A stretch of 64,000 bases of DNA from an uncultured Acidobacteriota bacterium (GTDB lineage Bacteria; Acidobacteriota; Thermoanaerobaculia; Gp7-AA8), in assembly GCA_963822445.1 (NCBI GenBank), contig CAWGHO010000003.1, positions 384,001-448,000 on the forward strand, written 5' to 3'. The position numbers and the translations under genes are program-made. Within the stretch, counting starts at the first letter, position 1; each line of letters begins with the position of its first letter. This document shows positions 6,496 through 56,894 of this stretch, piece after piece. The notes under the pieces are model-generated. The model saw only the letters and a program-made list of their open reading frames with translations, was not told where the DNA came from and did not search any database.

Positions 6496-6570
6496 GCAGG
6501 AACGAGCAACGAGGCACGAGGTACGAGTGAAGTCTTTACTCGTGCCTCGTCCCTCGTGCCTCGCACCTGC
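6496..6570. repeat. Inverted pair of tandem heptamer arrays (HACGAGG x4 ... CCTCGTG x4)
   Basis: gcagg aacgagc aacgagg cacgagg tacgagt - gaagtcttt - actcgtg cctcgtc cctcgtg cctcgca cctgc, between convergent genes. Confidence 0.88.
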
Positions 6571-9330: not shown

Positions 9331-9354
9331 GTGGTTGCGGGGTTGCTGGGTTGC
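9331..9354. repeat. Single-arm tandem octamer array (GGGGTTGC-like x3)
   Basis: gtggttgc ggggttgc tgggttgc; same unit as the arms flanking the four-helix-bundle gene. Confidence 0.65.
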
Positions 9355-24478: not shown

Positions 24479-24558
24479 GGTTCCGGGGTTACGAGGTTTC
24501 GGGGTTACGGGGTGGTTGTCGGGTTGTCGGGTTGTCGAGTTGTCAGGTTGTCGGGTGG
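24479..24558. repeat. Composite single-arm octamer array: GGGGTTAC-type units followed by GGGTTGTC-type units
   Basis: ggttcc ggggttac gaggtttc ggggttac ggggtgg | ttgtc gggttgtc gggttgtc gagttgtc aggttgtc gggtgg, abutting the PL8 ATG. Confidence 0.9.
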
Positions 24559-24565
24559 CTCGAAA

Positions 24566-24592
24566 CTGAAAAGGCCGGCGTACGCCGGCCTC
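24566..24592 (-). terminator. Rho-independent terminator of the cold-shock gene
   Basis: Minus strand AGGCCGGCG-TA-CGCCGGCCT followed by TTTCAGTTT. Confidence 0.7.
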
Positions 24593-45822: not shown

Positions 45823-45912
45823 CGGGTTGGCGAGTTGTCGGGTGATCAGGTTGTCAGGTAGTTCTTTTCCGTCTGACACCGGACAACCTGACAACCCGAC
45901 AACCTGACAACT
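45823..45912. repeat. Inverted pair of tandem octamer arrays (CRGGTTGT x5 ... GACAACC x4-5)
   Basis: cgggttgg cgagttgt cgggtgat caggttgt caggtagt ... ggacaacc tgacaacc cgacaacc tgacaact, between convergent genes. Confidence 0.9.
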
Positions 45913-46799: not shown

Positions 46800-48200
46800 A
46801 TGGAGCGTTTCACTGCGCTGATCGGGTTCGTTGCGATCCTGCTGATTGCGTTCGCCATTTCCACCAACCGGCGGGCCATCAAGTGGAAGCCGGTGTTCTG
46901 GGGCCTCGTCCTTCAGATCATCGTGGCCATCCTGGTGCTCAAGGGGGTCTGGATCGCGAACGCGCTCGCTCCGATCGCCCTGCCGCTGGAGCGATGGGGC
47001 GCGGCGCTGATCTTCATCCTCGCGGCGATCATCGCCACCCAGATCGCGAAACGCATTGCTCCCGGAGCGCGGCGCATCCTCTGGATTGCCTTCGGCGTCT
47101 TCGCGCTCTACCTCTTCCTGGCCTTCAACCTCCTGGCCTTCCTCTTCGAGACGATGAAGGAAGTGGTGAACCGGCTGATCGGATTCACGGCCGAGGGGGC
47201 GAAGTTCGTCTTCGGGAATCTCGCGGTCGGTGAGCAGCCGATCGGCTTCGTGTTCGCCGCGCAGGTGCTGCCGACGATCATCTTCATCGCCTCGATCTTC
47301 GCGATCCTCTACTACATCGGTGTGATGCAGCACGTGGTGAAGTTCTTCGCGAAGATCATGACCCGCTTCATGGGCGTGTCCGGCGCGGAATCGACGTCCG
47401 TGGCCGCGTCGATCTTCATGGGTCAGACCGAGGCGCCGCTGACCATCCGGCCGTTCCTGCCGGACATGACCCGGTCGGAGCTGATGACCATCATGACCGC
47501 GGGCATGGCTCACATTTCCGGCGGGATCATGGCCGCATACGTTCTGATCGCGAAGGTCGACGTCATCCACCTCCTGACCGCGGTGATCATGACCGCGCCG
47601 GGCGCGATCATGATGGCCAAGATGGTCGTGCCGGAGGAAGAAGAGCCGAAGACCGGCGGCGACGTGGAAGTGGTGGTGCCGCAGCAGGACGTGAACGTGA
47701 TCGACGCCGCCGGACGGGGCGCGATCGAAGGGTTGCATCTCTCGTTGAACGTGGCCGGAATGCTGATCGCGTTCATCGCCCTCGTGGCCATGGTGAACGG
47801 GATGTTCGGCTACGTGCACGGTTTCCTGGCCTGGTTCCCGGCCAGCCTTGACATCCTCCTGGGCTGGATCTTCCGTCCCATCGCCTGGGCCATGGGTGTT
47901 GCCTGGAAGGACAGCCTCCAGGTCGGCAACCTCCTCGGCACGCGCATGGTGCTGAACGAGTTCGTGGCCTTCGCCAAGCTCGGCCCCATCGCCGACTCCC
48001 TCGATCACCGCAGCTTCGTCATCGCCACGTACGCCCTGTGCGGCTTCGCGAATTTCTCGTCCATCGCCATCCAGATCGGCGGCATCGGCTCGCTCGCGCC
48101 CACGCGACGCGGCGATCTGGCGAGGCTGGGGTTGAGGGCGATGATCGCGGGAACGCTGGCGAATTTCTTGACGGCGACGATTGCGGGGATGTTGTTGTGA
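46800..48200 (+). CDS. nupC: NupC/CNT concentrative nucleoside transporter
   Basis: VLPTIIF, IFMGQTEAPL.IRP, NEFVAF, YALCGFANFSSI. Confidence 0.93.
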   Translation: MERFTALIGFVAILLIAFAISTNRRAIKWKPVFWGLVLQIIVAILVLKGVWIANALAPIALPLERWGAALIFILAAIIATQIAKRIAPGARRILWIAFGVFALYLFLAFNLLAFLFETMKEVVNRLIGFTAEGAKFVFGNLAVGEQPIGFVFAAQVLPTIIFIASIFAILYYIGVMQHVVKFFAKIMTRFMGVSGAESTSVAASIFMGQTEAPLTIRPFLPDMTRSELMTIMTAGMAHISGGIMAAYVLIAKVDVIHLLTAVIMTAPGAIMMAKMVVPEEEEPKTGGDVEVVVPQQDVNVIDAAGRGAIEGLHLSLNVAGMLIAFIALVAMVNGMFGYVHGFLAWFPASLDILLGWIFRPIAWAMGVAWKDSLQVGNLLGTRMVLNEFVAFAKLGPIADSLDHRSFVIATYALCGFANFSSIAIQIGGIGSLAPTRRGDLARLGLRAMIAGTLANFLTATIAGMLL

Positions 48201-48203
48201 GCT

Positions 48204-48243
48204 TGGGTTGCGGGGTTACGGAGTTTCGCGGTTACGGGGTGGA
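48204..48243. repeat. Left tandem octamer arm (GGGGTTRC-like x5) of the four-helix-bundle element
   Basis: tgggttgc ggggttac ggagtttc gcggttac ggggtgga. Confidence 0.88.
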
Positions 48244-48307
48244 TCCGAGGTAGACTCGCGGTCCCACCTGCGCCGGTCGCGTTTCACGCCTTCCGACCCA
48301 ACCGCGT

Positions 48308-48766
48308 ATGTCTTCATTTCGGGAACTTCATGTGTTCAGGCTCGCGCTTGGACTGATGCGAATGGTGTACGCCGAAACGGCGGCGTTTCCCAGTCACGAG
48401 TTGTACGGCCTCACGTCGCAGATGCGACGCGCATCGATTGGCATTCTCAGCAGCATCGCCGAAGGTGAAGGGCGCCTGACGCCCGGCGAGTGGCGCCACA
48501 TGCTCAGTCAATCACGCGGGTCGCTGTTCGAAGTGGAAGCGCAGGCGCTCGCGGCTCACGATCTCGGATATCTCGACGAGGAGAGGCTCGCGAAACTCGA
48601 GCGTCAGATTCGCCGCGTCGGGAAGGCCCTGATCGGCTTCATCCGCTTCGTCCAGTCAAAGGAGGAAACTCCACCCCGTAACCCCGCAACCTCGAAACCC
48701 CGCAACGTCACCGAAGCAGCGCCAGCAACCCCGCAAAATCACCAGGCACATCCGCCTGAAACGTAA
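48308..48766 (+). CDS. Four-helix-bundle protein (23S rRNA IVP / Avd-like family)
   Basis: SFRELHVF..A..L...VY..T..FP..E.YGLTSQMRRAS..I..SIAEG.GR...RGSL.EV.....A.DLGY; reads through the right repeat arm and overlaps rluD. Confidence 0.92.
   Translation: MSSFRELHVFRLALGLMRMVYAETAAFPSHELYGLTSQMRRASIGILSSIAEGEGRLTPGEWRHMLSQSRGSLFEVEAQALAAHDLGYLDEERLAKLERQIRRVGKALIGFIRFVQSKEETPPRNPATSKPRNVTEAAPATPQNHQAHPPET
48670..48707. repeat. Right (inverted) tandem octamer arm of the four-helix-bundle element
   Basis: tccaccccgt aaccccgc aacctcga aaccccgc aac; inner 14 nt are perfectly complementary to the left arm. Confidence 0.88.
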
Positions 48767-49649
48767 GCGTGCTCCCGCGATGCTCAAAGGTGATCCTCCA
48801 CGCATGCAACATCTGCCTTTCGATAGCGGCGATCGCTTTCTGGATCTTCTTGTCCGGGATGCCGCGCCATTGGGGGCCGGAGTAGACGGGGTCGCCGATG
48901 ATGGGGTGGCCCAGATGTTTCAGATGCACGCGGATCTGGTGGGTGCGGCCGGTGCGGAGGGAGCAGCGGATCAGCGAGGCGTGGCGGAGGCGTTCCACCA
49001 CTTCGTAGTCGGTGATCGCGCGGCGGCCGGTCGGGACGACGGCCATGCGCTTGCGGTTGTGCGGGTCGCGACCGATCGGGGCTTCGATCGTGCCGCGTGA
49101 CTCGGTCGGCGTTCCGTAGACCAGGGCCAGGTACTCCTTGCGGACCTTGTCCGTGTTCCAGGCCGTGGTCAGGGCGCGGTGGGTCTCGTCATTCTTCGCG
49201 ATCACCATCACGCCGCTCGTGTCCTTGTCGAGCCGGTGGACGATGCCCGGGCGGATCTCGCCGCCGATGCCGCTCAGGTCCTTGACCCTAAACAAAAGCG
49301 CGTTGACGAGCGTCTGATCGGCATGTCCGGCCGCGGGATGCACGACGAGACCTGCCGACTTGTCGATCACGACGAGATTCTCATCTTCGAACAGCACCGT
49401 CAGGGGCAGATCCTGGGCTTCGACGGTCGAAGGGGCAGCGGGCGGAATGTCGATCTCGATCTGCTGCCCTTCCTCCACGCGATGGGAGGGTTTGCCTACG
49501 GTCCGGGAGTCGACGCGCACCGATCCGGACTCGACCAGGCGGGCCAGAAAACTCCGGCTGAAGTCGGGGAAGAGCTCGCCCAGAGCGCGATCGAGACGGG
49601 CGCCGGCCTGCGCGGGACTGGTCTTCGCGGCGCGCGTGGTGTCGGTCAT
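48708..49649 (-). CDS. rluD: 23S rRNA pseudouridine synthase (RluA family with S4 domain)
   Basis: RLD..L...SRS S4 domain, GLVVHP, RPGIVHRLDKDTSG, TGRTHQIRVH, GDPVY. Confidence 0.93.
   Translation of the reverse strand: MTDTTRAAKTSPAQAGARLDRALGELFPDFSRSFLARLVESGSVRVDSRTVGKPSHRVEEGQQIEIDIPPAAPSTVEAQDLPLTVLFEDENLVVIDKSAGLVVHPAAGHADQTLVNALLFRVKDLSGIGGEIRPGIVHRLDKDTSGVMVIAKNDETHRALTTAWNTDKVRKEYLALVYGTPTESRGTIEAPIGRDPHNRKRMAVVPTGRRAITDYEVVERLRHASLIRCSLRTGRTHQIRVHLKHLGHPIIGDPVYSGPQWRGIPDKKIQKAIAAIERQMLHAWRITFEHRGSTLTFQADVPGDFAGLLALLR

Positions 49650-56796: not shown

Positions 56797-56894
<98 letters not shown>

Follow-up and report, generated by a model that had tools for sequence, protein, structure and literature searches.

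Why should the gene for a small four-helix-bundle protein lie in the loop of a long hairpin built from tandem octamers, and what keeps the two arms of such a hairpin alike? The question is raised by positions 48204-48766 of a 64,000-nucleotide stretch of DNA (the window) from an uncultured Acidobacteriota bacterium, which is C3:384001-448000 of the genome under study, here called G000. A preliminary description drawn from the letters had read the locus as a mobile or self-propagating system in which each paralogue has a cognate repeat unit and gene-less arrays are non-autonomous copies or footprints. We find that the locus is a real gene-in-hairpin element, above chance, and that all its paralogues in the genome are enclosed in the same manner. 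We tentatively explain these elements by a partnership between the protein and its repeat.

A four-helix-bundle gene enclosed by inverted tandem arms

The 5' (G-rich) arm, at 48204-48243 on the + strand, consists of about five octamers (GGGTTGC GGGGTTAC GGAGTTTC GCGGTTAC GGGGTGGA) and begins 4 nucleotides past the nupC stop codon. Its reverse complement forms the 3' (C-rich) arm at 48670-48706 (+ strand), beyond which an extra degenerate copy of the unit, AACCCCGCAA, is found at 48727-48736. Over 37 nucleotides (48207-48243 against 48670-48706) the arms, each with about five GGGGTTRC-like units, are 86% complementary, and the inner GGTTACGGGGTGGA pairs perfectly with TCCACCCCGTAACC, just as first described. 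The bracket score of this arrangement is 49; 300 shuffles average 18.7 and reach 29 at most.

The enclosed gene (48308-48766, + strand) encodes a protein of 152 amino acids, residues 5-109 of which match PF05635 (23S_rRNA_IVP) with an E value of 1.6e-26. The score for this family, the sole Pfam match of the protein, is 93.1 bits against a curated cut-off of 33.8, and that for TIGR02436 ('four helix bundle protein') is 82.8 bits against a cut-off of 24; the Pfam search gave no match to Y1_Tnp. In an AlphaFold2 model with a mean predicted local distance difference test score of 84.7, helices span residues 2-24, 29-52, 59-85 and 91-120. Foldseek placed 2gsc (XCC0516) at the top of its matches (TM 0.88-0.91, root-mean-square deviation about 1 Å), followed by 2rld and then by Avd of the diversity-generating retroelements (4dwl and 8ub7; TM about 0.8-0.85 with 10-12% identity). 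The 2gsc structure holds five chains, and the accessible part of PMC4990558 describes this homologue as a homopentameric toroid, citing Lin et al. 2006; a homopentameric ring for the window protein would be an analogy drawn from this homologue.

The cassette is situated between a nupC-type nucleoside transporter gene on its left (46800-48200, + strand) and a convergent rluD-type pseudouridine synthase gene on its right (48708-49649, − strand). With no stop codon ahead of the right arm, the open reading frame (ORF) is translated straight through it (TPPRNPATSKPRN) and shares its last 59 nucleotides with the 3' end of rluD. The right arm and the rluD overlap encode the C-terminal tail. The Rfam scan of the window returned neither rRNA nor any other Rfam family, and the genome (94.7% complete) has no match to the reverse transcriptase family RVT_1, on which ground a reverse transcriptase was rejected as the maker of the repeats. 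In its account of the family, the flanks, the read-through and the lack of rRNA and reverse transcriptase, the preliminary description was accurate.

Six paralogues, each with its own repeat unit

All six PF05635 genes found in G000 are bracketed by inverted tandem arrays, and each has a distinct unit (AATTGAA in one of them), in agreement with the cognate unit initially assigned to each paralogue. Their bracket scores are 44-62, compared with the shuffle maximum of 29, while only 1 of 300 random small predicted genes used as a control scored at least 36. Five of the six cassettes fit exactly between the stop codon of one neighbour and the start codon of the other, the host junctions including that of an ABC ATPase with its permease and that of a membrane-fusion protein with its CusA-like pump.

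Tandem Repeats Finder, with at least 3 copies required, detected 371 arrays of period 7, 397 of period 8 and 10 of period 10 in the genome, and 263 inverted pairs of tandem 7/8-mers were recognised in 42 unit families. The loop between the two arms measures at most 200 nucleotides in 250 of the 263 pairs and at most 60 in 244, and the remaining 13 have gaps of 201-1500 nucleotides. Arms within a family have a defined length and phase, such as GAATGCA x4 followed by GAA. The median number of copies per arm is 4.4 for 7-mers (31 nucleotides) as well as for 8-mers (35 nucleotides), and 377 of 526 arms hold 4.0-4.5 copies; the equal median for both periods indicates that the number of units is fixed and not the length in nucleotides. 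In 253 of the 263 pairs G exceeds C in the first arm (5 are ties and 5 are reversed), and the same G-rich-first order was observed for 88 of 93 genus cassettes and 17 of 18 loci from the phylum. Given that an inverted repeat reads alike from both strands, this order represents a true bias of configuration.

Spacer statistics were obtained with a crude in-house ORF caller (4043 genes, about 79% coding). They place 155 hairpins in co-directional, 45 in divergent and 33 in convergent spacers, where spacers overall are 60% co-directional, 20% divergent and 20% convergent, and the median distance of a hairpin past the stop codon is 4 nucleotides. A role in termination was rejected because convergent spacers are not enriched in hairpins (33/233 versus 20% of all spacers).

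Cassettes are mostly inherited in place

Each of the 35 genus genomes contains PF05635, the listed matches numbering 1-9 per genome. From about 155 genus hits, 109 relatives' loci were examined, and a statement below that a genome has no matching gene is provisional in this sense; two genomes, G002 and G041, are unpublished and are the basis of the counts given for them and of loci L015 (from G002), L037 and L047. A hidden Markov model built from the six G000 copies yielded 118 ORFs in the 109 loci together with the G000 copies, comprising 93 with arms scoring at least 36, 7 with weaker tandem arms, 7 lacking flanking sequence and about 11 flanked but armless. A phylum-wide search for the family found it in 89 of 151 genomes sampled, and arms scoring at least 36 were seen at 18 of 29 loci.

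When 98 cassettes were grouped by their outer flanks, 25 sites resulted, and the protein clades in a quick IQ-TREE tree match these genomic sites (L036, L049 and hits with arm scores below 29 were excluded from both analyses and from the site-by-site comparisons that follow). This coincidence of clade and site indicates that cassettes are mostly inherited in place, and the mobile gene cassette of the preliminary description gives way to one that descends vertically at fixed junctions. Within a site the unit differs between species and both arms nonetheless remain complementary, the units being AAAATTG, AATTGAG, AATTGCG, AATTGTG and GGATTGA at site 2, AATGCAG, AAGGCAG, AACGCAG, AATGAAG and AATTTCG at site 3, and ACGAGGK, GAGGTAT, GAGGGAT, AAAAGGT and GGGTGCT at site 1.

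Presence or absence at nupC-rluD, which had been proposed as a check, gave a divided answer. At 14 congener loci nupC and rluD are still convergent, and none of these loci has the gene. Their spacer is nearly nil (3-28 nucleotides) in L016, L014 and L010, consists of plain GC-rich palindromes or other non-unit sequence in L002, L003, L007 and L013, and holds gene-less hairpins of other units in L006, L008, L015, L017, L018 and L019. A PF05635 cassette does occupy precisely this junction in two further congeners, G042 (unit GGTTGCGC) and G048 (unit GGGTCCTC), and the protein nearest to that of the window, from locus L069 of G011, lies at a different site between arms of GGGGTCAC/GGGGTTGC. Judged from these sequences, the window cassette is an old, patchily kept resident of nupC-rluD and not a recent insertion.

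At a site 3' of the PNP gene, G024 and G048 hold a PF05635 cassette (unit GGTTGCGC) where G000 has a gene-less hairpin (45823-45911), and site 11 provides a second orthologous pair of cassette and gene-less hairpin. Sites 7, 5, 13 and 22, occupied by cassettes in relatives, are vacant in G000, where two host genes overlap as TGATG at site 7. Two other cassette sites of relatives hold other small genes in G000 (C2:1362521-1362822 and C3:1119380-1120178): a HicB-like antitoxin ORF is found at one, and an AbiEii-like nucleotidyltransferase ORF (E 6e-4, below the cut-off), an 83-amino-acid ORF and one array at the other. Cassette junctions seem to collect small accessory genes.

In L075 (G048:C8:79066-84021) the nupC-PNP pair is flanked on both sides by a cassette, the two being 2.5 kb from each other and having units GGGTCCTC and GGTTGCGC; their proteins belong to sister clades, which suggests a local duplication. 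Contigs of draft congeners often end in arrays (L011, which is G021:C393, and many contig ends in G041). Since the repeats break draft assemblies, cassettes may be under-counted in drafts.

A phased core within the arms

Clade A, a deep clade of the protein tree, holds 29 cassettes from 6 sites, among which 17 different units occur. GA is kept in phase in 29/29 of these cassettes and GAA in 24/29, usually with five GAA per arm, while unit positions 4-7 take three or four bases each; outside the clade, only 1 of 69 cassettes has at least three GAA. TTAG behaves likewise in the clade of the GTTAGTC cassette, being phased in 7/9 cassettes there and in 0/89 others. By analogy with the five-chain homologue, the simplest fit to these numbers would be a ring of five subunits matched to an arm of five phased cores.

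Solo hairpins and the resident cassette

The 5' arms of the six G000 cassettes match 59, 53, 46, 12, 10 and 4 loci in G000. As for 92 foreign arms, 65 have no match in this genome, and those that do match share their unit with a cassette of its own or with an orphan family, that is, one with no matching gene in G000. The sequence (GAATGCA)x3, with at most one mismatch, gave 106 hits in G000 and 78 in G012, namely the pair in which the site-3 arms consist purely of AATGCAG; elsewhere it gave 4-35 hits in seven genomes with related or untyped arms, 1 in G047 and 0 in 25. The solo hairpins of G012 carry the composite arm of its own cassette (three GAATGCA, then GAATnnn, GAATTGA and GAA), and those of G000 carry 4.4 pure units like the G000 cassette. 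Among 20 sampled G012 hairpins, 14 could be mapped to G000 by both flanks, and the corresponding G000 sites have the shared family in 3 cases, another family in 1, other palindromes in 2 and nothing in 8. Six genomes have a site-7 cassette with the unit GTTCCTCGG and contain 171-1263 arrays of it each, and 22 genomes contain no such array; G047 has 869 of them, and its site-7 copy retains the right arm only.

For a reciprocal test at site 2, nine genomes were typed AAAATTG or AATTGAG, and in 8 of them the dispersed family fits the cassette unit. Where the cassette unit is AAAATTG, the counts of GAAAATT and GAGAATT are 13 and 1 in G000, 98 and 0 in G042, 66 and 0 in G006, 137 and 82 in G015, and 151 and 22 in G041, respectively. 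Where it is AATTGAG, they are 0 and 29 in G010, 0 and 36 in G003, and 27 and 61 in G002, the exception being G020 with 74 and 19; G024, typed AATTGTG, has 0 and 18. The two sampled genomes free of PF05635 contain 1 and 0 inverted pairs per 400 kb, compared with 21 and 27 in G000, and in these two the arrays are not equally common, which the preliminary description had allowed might count against it.

With regard to the origin of the solo hairpins, the leader motif of the cassettes (described below) is present in only 1 of 112 gene-less loops, and solo hairpins as deletion derivatives were rejected. BLAST of the loops against 98 cassette interiors returned matches of 13-15 nucleotides and one of 21-28 nucleotides (interiors of L122 and L125), and simple copying as a miniature inverted-repeat transposable element (MITE), or gene deletion, was discarded as their source because the loops are unrelated. 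Simple decay of cassettes into solo hairpins is not supported. The earlier idea of empty arrays as non-autonomous copies or footprints thus survives in the sense that they carry the arms of the resident cassette, while its footprint half rests on two orthologous sites and is weakened by the 112 loops, which have no recognisable gene remnants. The preliminary reading is also weakened by families that are intact without a matching gene, and by genomes with a family for which no matching gene was found.

A proposed partnership of protein and repeat, and its alternatives

The explanation to which we incline, and which in our view comes somewhat close to an even chance, is a protein-repeat partnership resembling that of repetitive extragenic palindromes (REP) and the REP-associated tyrosine transposase (RAYT), with the protein reading the phased cores of its own arms. 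A bolder version, in which PF05635 proteins are sequence-specific pentameric readers of five phased cores and each paralogue, together with host enzymes, maintains and spreads its own hairpins, seems to us rather doubtful. Each cassette holds its four-helix-bundle gene in the loop of a stem of about 35 bp, and the roughly 4.4 units of an arm supply five phased copies of a short core. Under the partnership a homopentameric ring would read these five cores in its own arm, each subunit taking one unit and the target probably being the G-rich arm in single-stranded form, as TRAP does with phased triplets. Recognition of this sort could keep the arms and solo hairpins homogeneous and, with host enzymes, could help hairpins persist or spread without a known transposase. 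In a transcript spanning both arms, the arms would pair and RNase III would probably cut the stem, as in rRNA intervening sequences, and the G-first order may prevent exposure of the C-rich arm as a Rho loading site.

Several observations weigh against this partnership. The protein has no catalytic motif of known kind, its near-invariant residues being only Q39, R42, E53 and E76; RAYT was rejected as a mobiliser, with none of the four Y1_Tnp-like ORFs in G000 flanked by unit arrays; and target-site duplication was absent from the junctions at which filled and empty sites were compared. Solo hairpins have loops that resemble neither one another nor the interiors of cassettes, and the 112 gene-less loops mentioned above point the same way. 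G155 has 6 PF05635 genes and 0 inverted pairs in 400 kb, and G066 has five genes and 3 pairs in 400 kb. Among the loci examined no matching gene was found in G016, which has 247 GTTCCTCGG hits, nor among the cassettes found was there one to match the GAAAATT arrays of G020 and of the drafts G017, G007 and G022; drafts may have lost cassettes at contig breaks that the repeats induce. Moreover, the genomes compared are kin and not independent, and a cassette unit and its dispersed family could be co-inherited.

Some of these points, and others, favour a rival in which hairpins are made and spread without the PF05635 protein, for instance by slippage with template switching that perfects palindromes, or by a transposase, and genes merely survive in, or have been inserted into, their loops. 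Junctions just past a stop codon would then be safe places, and shared descent, together with gene conversion among dispersed copies, would account for the match of arms with dispersed hairpins. The orphan families, 89 hairpins in five groups without a matching G000 gene, show complementarity of 0.86-0.91 and are as intact as the gene-linked families (125 hairpins, 0.875-0.954), which weighs against the partnership as well; decay of orphan families, looked for in this comparison, was rejected. As said, some genomes likewise have a family and no matching gene found. Likewise counting against the partnership, similar inverted tandem arms also enclose three genes outside PF05635, one at each of C2:654246-654687, C3:1661433-1661785 and C1:1142775-1143857, namely a 120-amino-acid ORF with no Pfam match, a 95-amino-acid ABM-like ORF (E 1.6e-4, below the cut-off) and a 336-amino-acid ORF that is hydrolase-like by eye only. 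The HicB-like and AbiEii-like ORFs of G000 at relatives' cassette sites fit this rival too, as does nupC-rluD, which across species holds different-unit hairpins, plain palindromes or nothing. rRNA intervening sequences likewise occupy helix tips. What makes a protein-independent origin unlikely in our judgement is that bracketing holds for 6/6 PF05635 genes and 1/300 control small genes, that the six paralogues keep different units with no convergence on the commonest family, and that a phased GAA core is kept through 17 unit variants at 6 sites. Copies per arm fixed at about 4.4, and almost no such hairpins in the two PF05635-free genomes, also speak against it.

A further alternative would take the element as working in RNA only: an mRNA intervening sequence whose stem is cut by RNase III, releasing or silencing the message and separating cistrons, with solo hairpins as processing or stabilising sites and the protein as a passenger or RNA chaperone that has no part in repeat maintenance. 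RNA folding of the window cassette does pair the arms in both the minimum-energy and the centroid structures (z −2.34), and the Coxiella intervening sequence, with its 28-bp stem, tandem heptamers beside the S23p ORF and RNase III cut, offers a parallel in the accessible part of PMC4990558. The layout of the 98 cassettes is informative here, as in 47 the start codon follows the arm after a few nucleotides (short leader), and in 51 the leader is at least 45 nucleotides long. Short-leader cassettes are placed exactly stop-to-start, and the inner end of the arm is purine-rich and Shine-Dalgarno-like in 28 of the 47, as the RNA-only element would have it. Long leaders tell against it: a motif TAnnnT-N5-10-C(n)CAC was found in 33 of 51 such cassettes, in none of the 47 with short leaders and in 16 of 5000 random windows, and looks like a −10 box followed by a transcription start. 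In the window it consists of TAGACT (48251-48256), 6 nucleotides and CCCACC (48263-48268) on the + strand, although a scan of 48100-48850 for the sigma-70 consensus, with both hexamers required, found no promoter. Because this −10-like motif lies inward of the 5' arm, the cassette's own transcript may lack that arm.

Mismatches in the arms are no more helpful to the RNA-only element, since those of wobble type, compatible with G-U pairing, number 90 in the sense and 90 in the antisense direction, with 182 transversions; the test is a blunt one because many mismatches stem from shuffled unit variants, and the equality weighs against the partnership as well. The looping-out of the gene in RNA, as originally envisaged, is predicted by folding and weakened by the missing sense-strand excess and by a transcript that may start inward of the 5' arm and so lack it. 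Pure structure would also leave the conserved cores and the near-identical dispersed arms unexplained, and convergent gene ends, as noted, are not enriched. We consider an RNA-only element distinctly improbable.

That the protein is an ordinary regulator, with the hairpins as operators of neighbouring genes and its own arms serving autoregulation, is very hard to credit: one unit per paralogue and dispersed matching sites would suit it, but the sites turn over between species and lie at non-orthologous places (only 3 of 14 shared between G012 and G000), the neighbours are unrelated, in all orientations and in general spacer proportions, and the arms of 31 nucleotides are near-identical, which indicates copying and not convergent evolution of sites.

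Returning to the protein-repeat partnership, if the protein reads its own repeat, the role of PF05635, a widespread family, and the excess of heptamer repeats would share one testable answer. In the portions of PMC4692102 and PMC4679880 available, heptamer repeats are said to be over-represented among bacteria and to have received no focused study. Should the bolder version with pentameric readers be true, it would be a new kind of selfish partnership of protein and repeat, of which rRNA intervening sequences are a special case, and would account for much of that excess. A search of open texts (subscription journals and supplements being outside this scope) turned up no publication in which PF05635 is connected with dispersed hairpins of tandem units outside rRNA. 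New here are the mostly vertical descent of cassettes at fixed junctions, the joint change of both arms, the tracking of the cassette by solo hairpins (with exceptions), the constancy of about 4.4 units, the GAA core of one protein clade and the G-first polarity. Test material is at hand in six natural protein-repeat pairs within one genome, with predicted cores GAA and TTAG and a predicted five cores per pentamer.

Other arrays in the window and further loci

Four further inverted arrays with different units, reported earlier near 757, 6496, 45823 and 56791, are real hairpins, all gene-less and assigned to neither strand. The one at 760-860 has GTTAGTS units and an arm as in the cassette at G000:C1:681621-681938; that at 6498-6563 has ACGAGG units, as in the cassette at G000:C3:1709643-1709957; that at 45823-45911, at the stop codon of the PNP gene, has GGTTGTCR units; and that at 56819-56894 has CAGTAGG units, for which no paralogue was found in G000. 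Of the five units expected to flank a paralogue each, GTTAGTS, HACGAGG and GGGGTTRC do so in G000, and CAGTAGG and CRGGTTGT do not.

The gene-less sister arrays of the window octamer, placed earlier at 9331 and 24479, exist as arrays and lack the inverted partner, being single arms. At 9333-9354 (+ strand) a partnerless G-rich arm of GGTTGCGG x2.8 lies in a divergent spacer. Two adjoining G-rich arms on the + strand, of GGGGTTAC type at 24479-24513 and of GGTTGTCG type at 24514-24556, run head to tail, lack any C-rich partner and directly abut the start codon of a gene on the minus strand; a GC-rich stem-loop is situated beyond them at about 24565-24590.

The Y1_Tnp (RAYT-like) ORFs of G000 are at C2:149470-149685, 335771-336001, 1610903-1611130 and 1162531-1162779. 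Three of the four adjoin GC-rich palindromes, and one has any 7/8-mer array within 1.5 kb, in a non-flanking position; GC-rich palindromes of the same sort fill the nupC-rluD spacer in L003, L007 and L013. A TTTCTGC x4.6 array at G000:C3:653025-653056, 1.25 kb from the cassette between the membrane-fusion and pump genes, lies inside a predicted CusA/CzcA-like pump ORF and is read there as RKQKAESRN. A Ku-like ORF, recognised by eye, is found between two AAAGGCTC hairpins at G000:C1:381000-381980 (− strand), and this bacterium may be capable of non-homologous end joining.

Comparison with known systems

Two classes of mobile or retrotranscribed element were tried and rejected. A MITE or other non-autonomous transposon is at odds with loops that are unrelated within families and with the lack of target-site duplication at the junctions examined, and a diversity-generating retroelement with the lack of an adjacent, or indeed any, RVT_1 reverse transcriptase in the 94.7%-complete genome. 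Avd of these retroelements has the same fold as the window protein, is pentameric and acts as a nucleic-acid-binding ribonucleoprotein partner; by contrast, the proteins are 10-12% identical and the present genome is without a reverse transcriptase. No template/variable repeat pair was seen, though none was searched for. TRAP is an oligomeric ring of 11 subunits that binds RNA only, each subunit taking one phased (G/U)AG triplet across variable spacers. Its fold is unrelated, and binding of the phased core by the window protein would be an analogy.

Heptamer arrays of a like kind are known as the short tandemly repeated repetitive (STRR) sequences of cyanobacteria. The GGGAATC heptamers of Xanthomonas are similarly intergenic and tandem, near an upstream ORF, and form convergent inverted pairs. 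In the sections of PMC4692102 available, each genome is credited with 70-75 such 'convergent' inverted pairs, in which both sides have the G-rich strand, and these sections make no mention of a four-helix-bundle or intervening-sequence protein, nor do they contain a link to a protein family or a rule of one unit for each paralogue. TAACTGA repeats are described for the Beggiatoaceae in the accessible part of PMC4679880.

REP/RAYT systems (REPINs) share with the present elements a single-copy gene that lies between inverted copies of the repeat belonging to it, the dispersal of that repeat in tens to hundreds of extragenic hairpins, and the occurrence of several such pairs per genome. They differ in that RAYT is an HUH/Y1 transposase, whereas the window protein belongs to the four-helix bundles and does not match Y1_Tnp, and in that the present repeats consist of 7-8-mers in tandem, with loops unrelated to one another.

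The rRNA intervening sequences of Coxiella burnetii and Leptospira, in which S23p belongs to PF05635, have the same family in the loop of an inverted-repeat stem of about 28-37 bp. According to the accessible part of PMC4990558, that of Coxiella has tandem GACAGAT heptamers by the start of its ORF, in strain-variable number, along with the 28-bp stem, and is excised by RNase III. The cassettes described here are located at junctions of protein genes and not in rRNA, as the Rfam scan of the window indicated, their arms consist wholly of tandem units, and cutting by RNase III is predicted; six paralogues each have a unit of their own, accompanied by hundreds of gene-less hairpins with the same arms. 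The rRNA intervening sequence with an ORF is nevertheless the closest known system, and the element is a variant of that kind.

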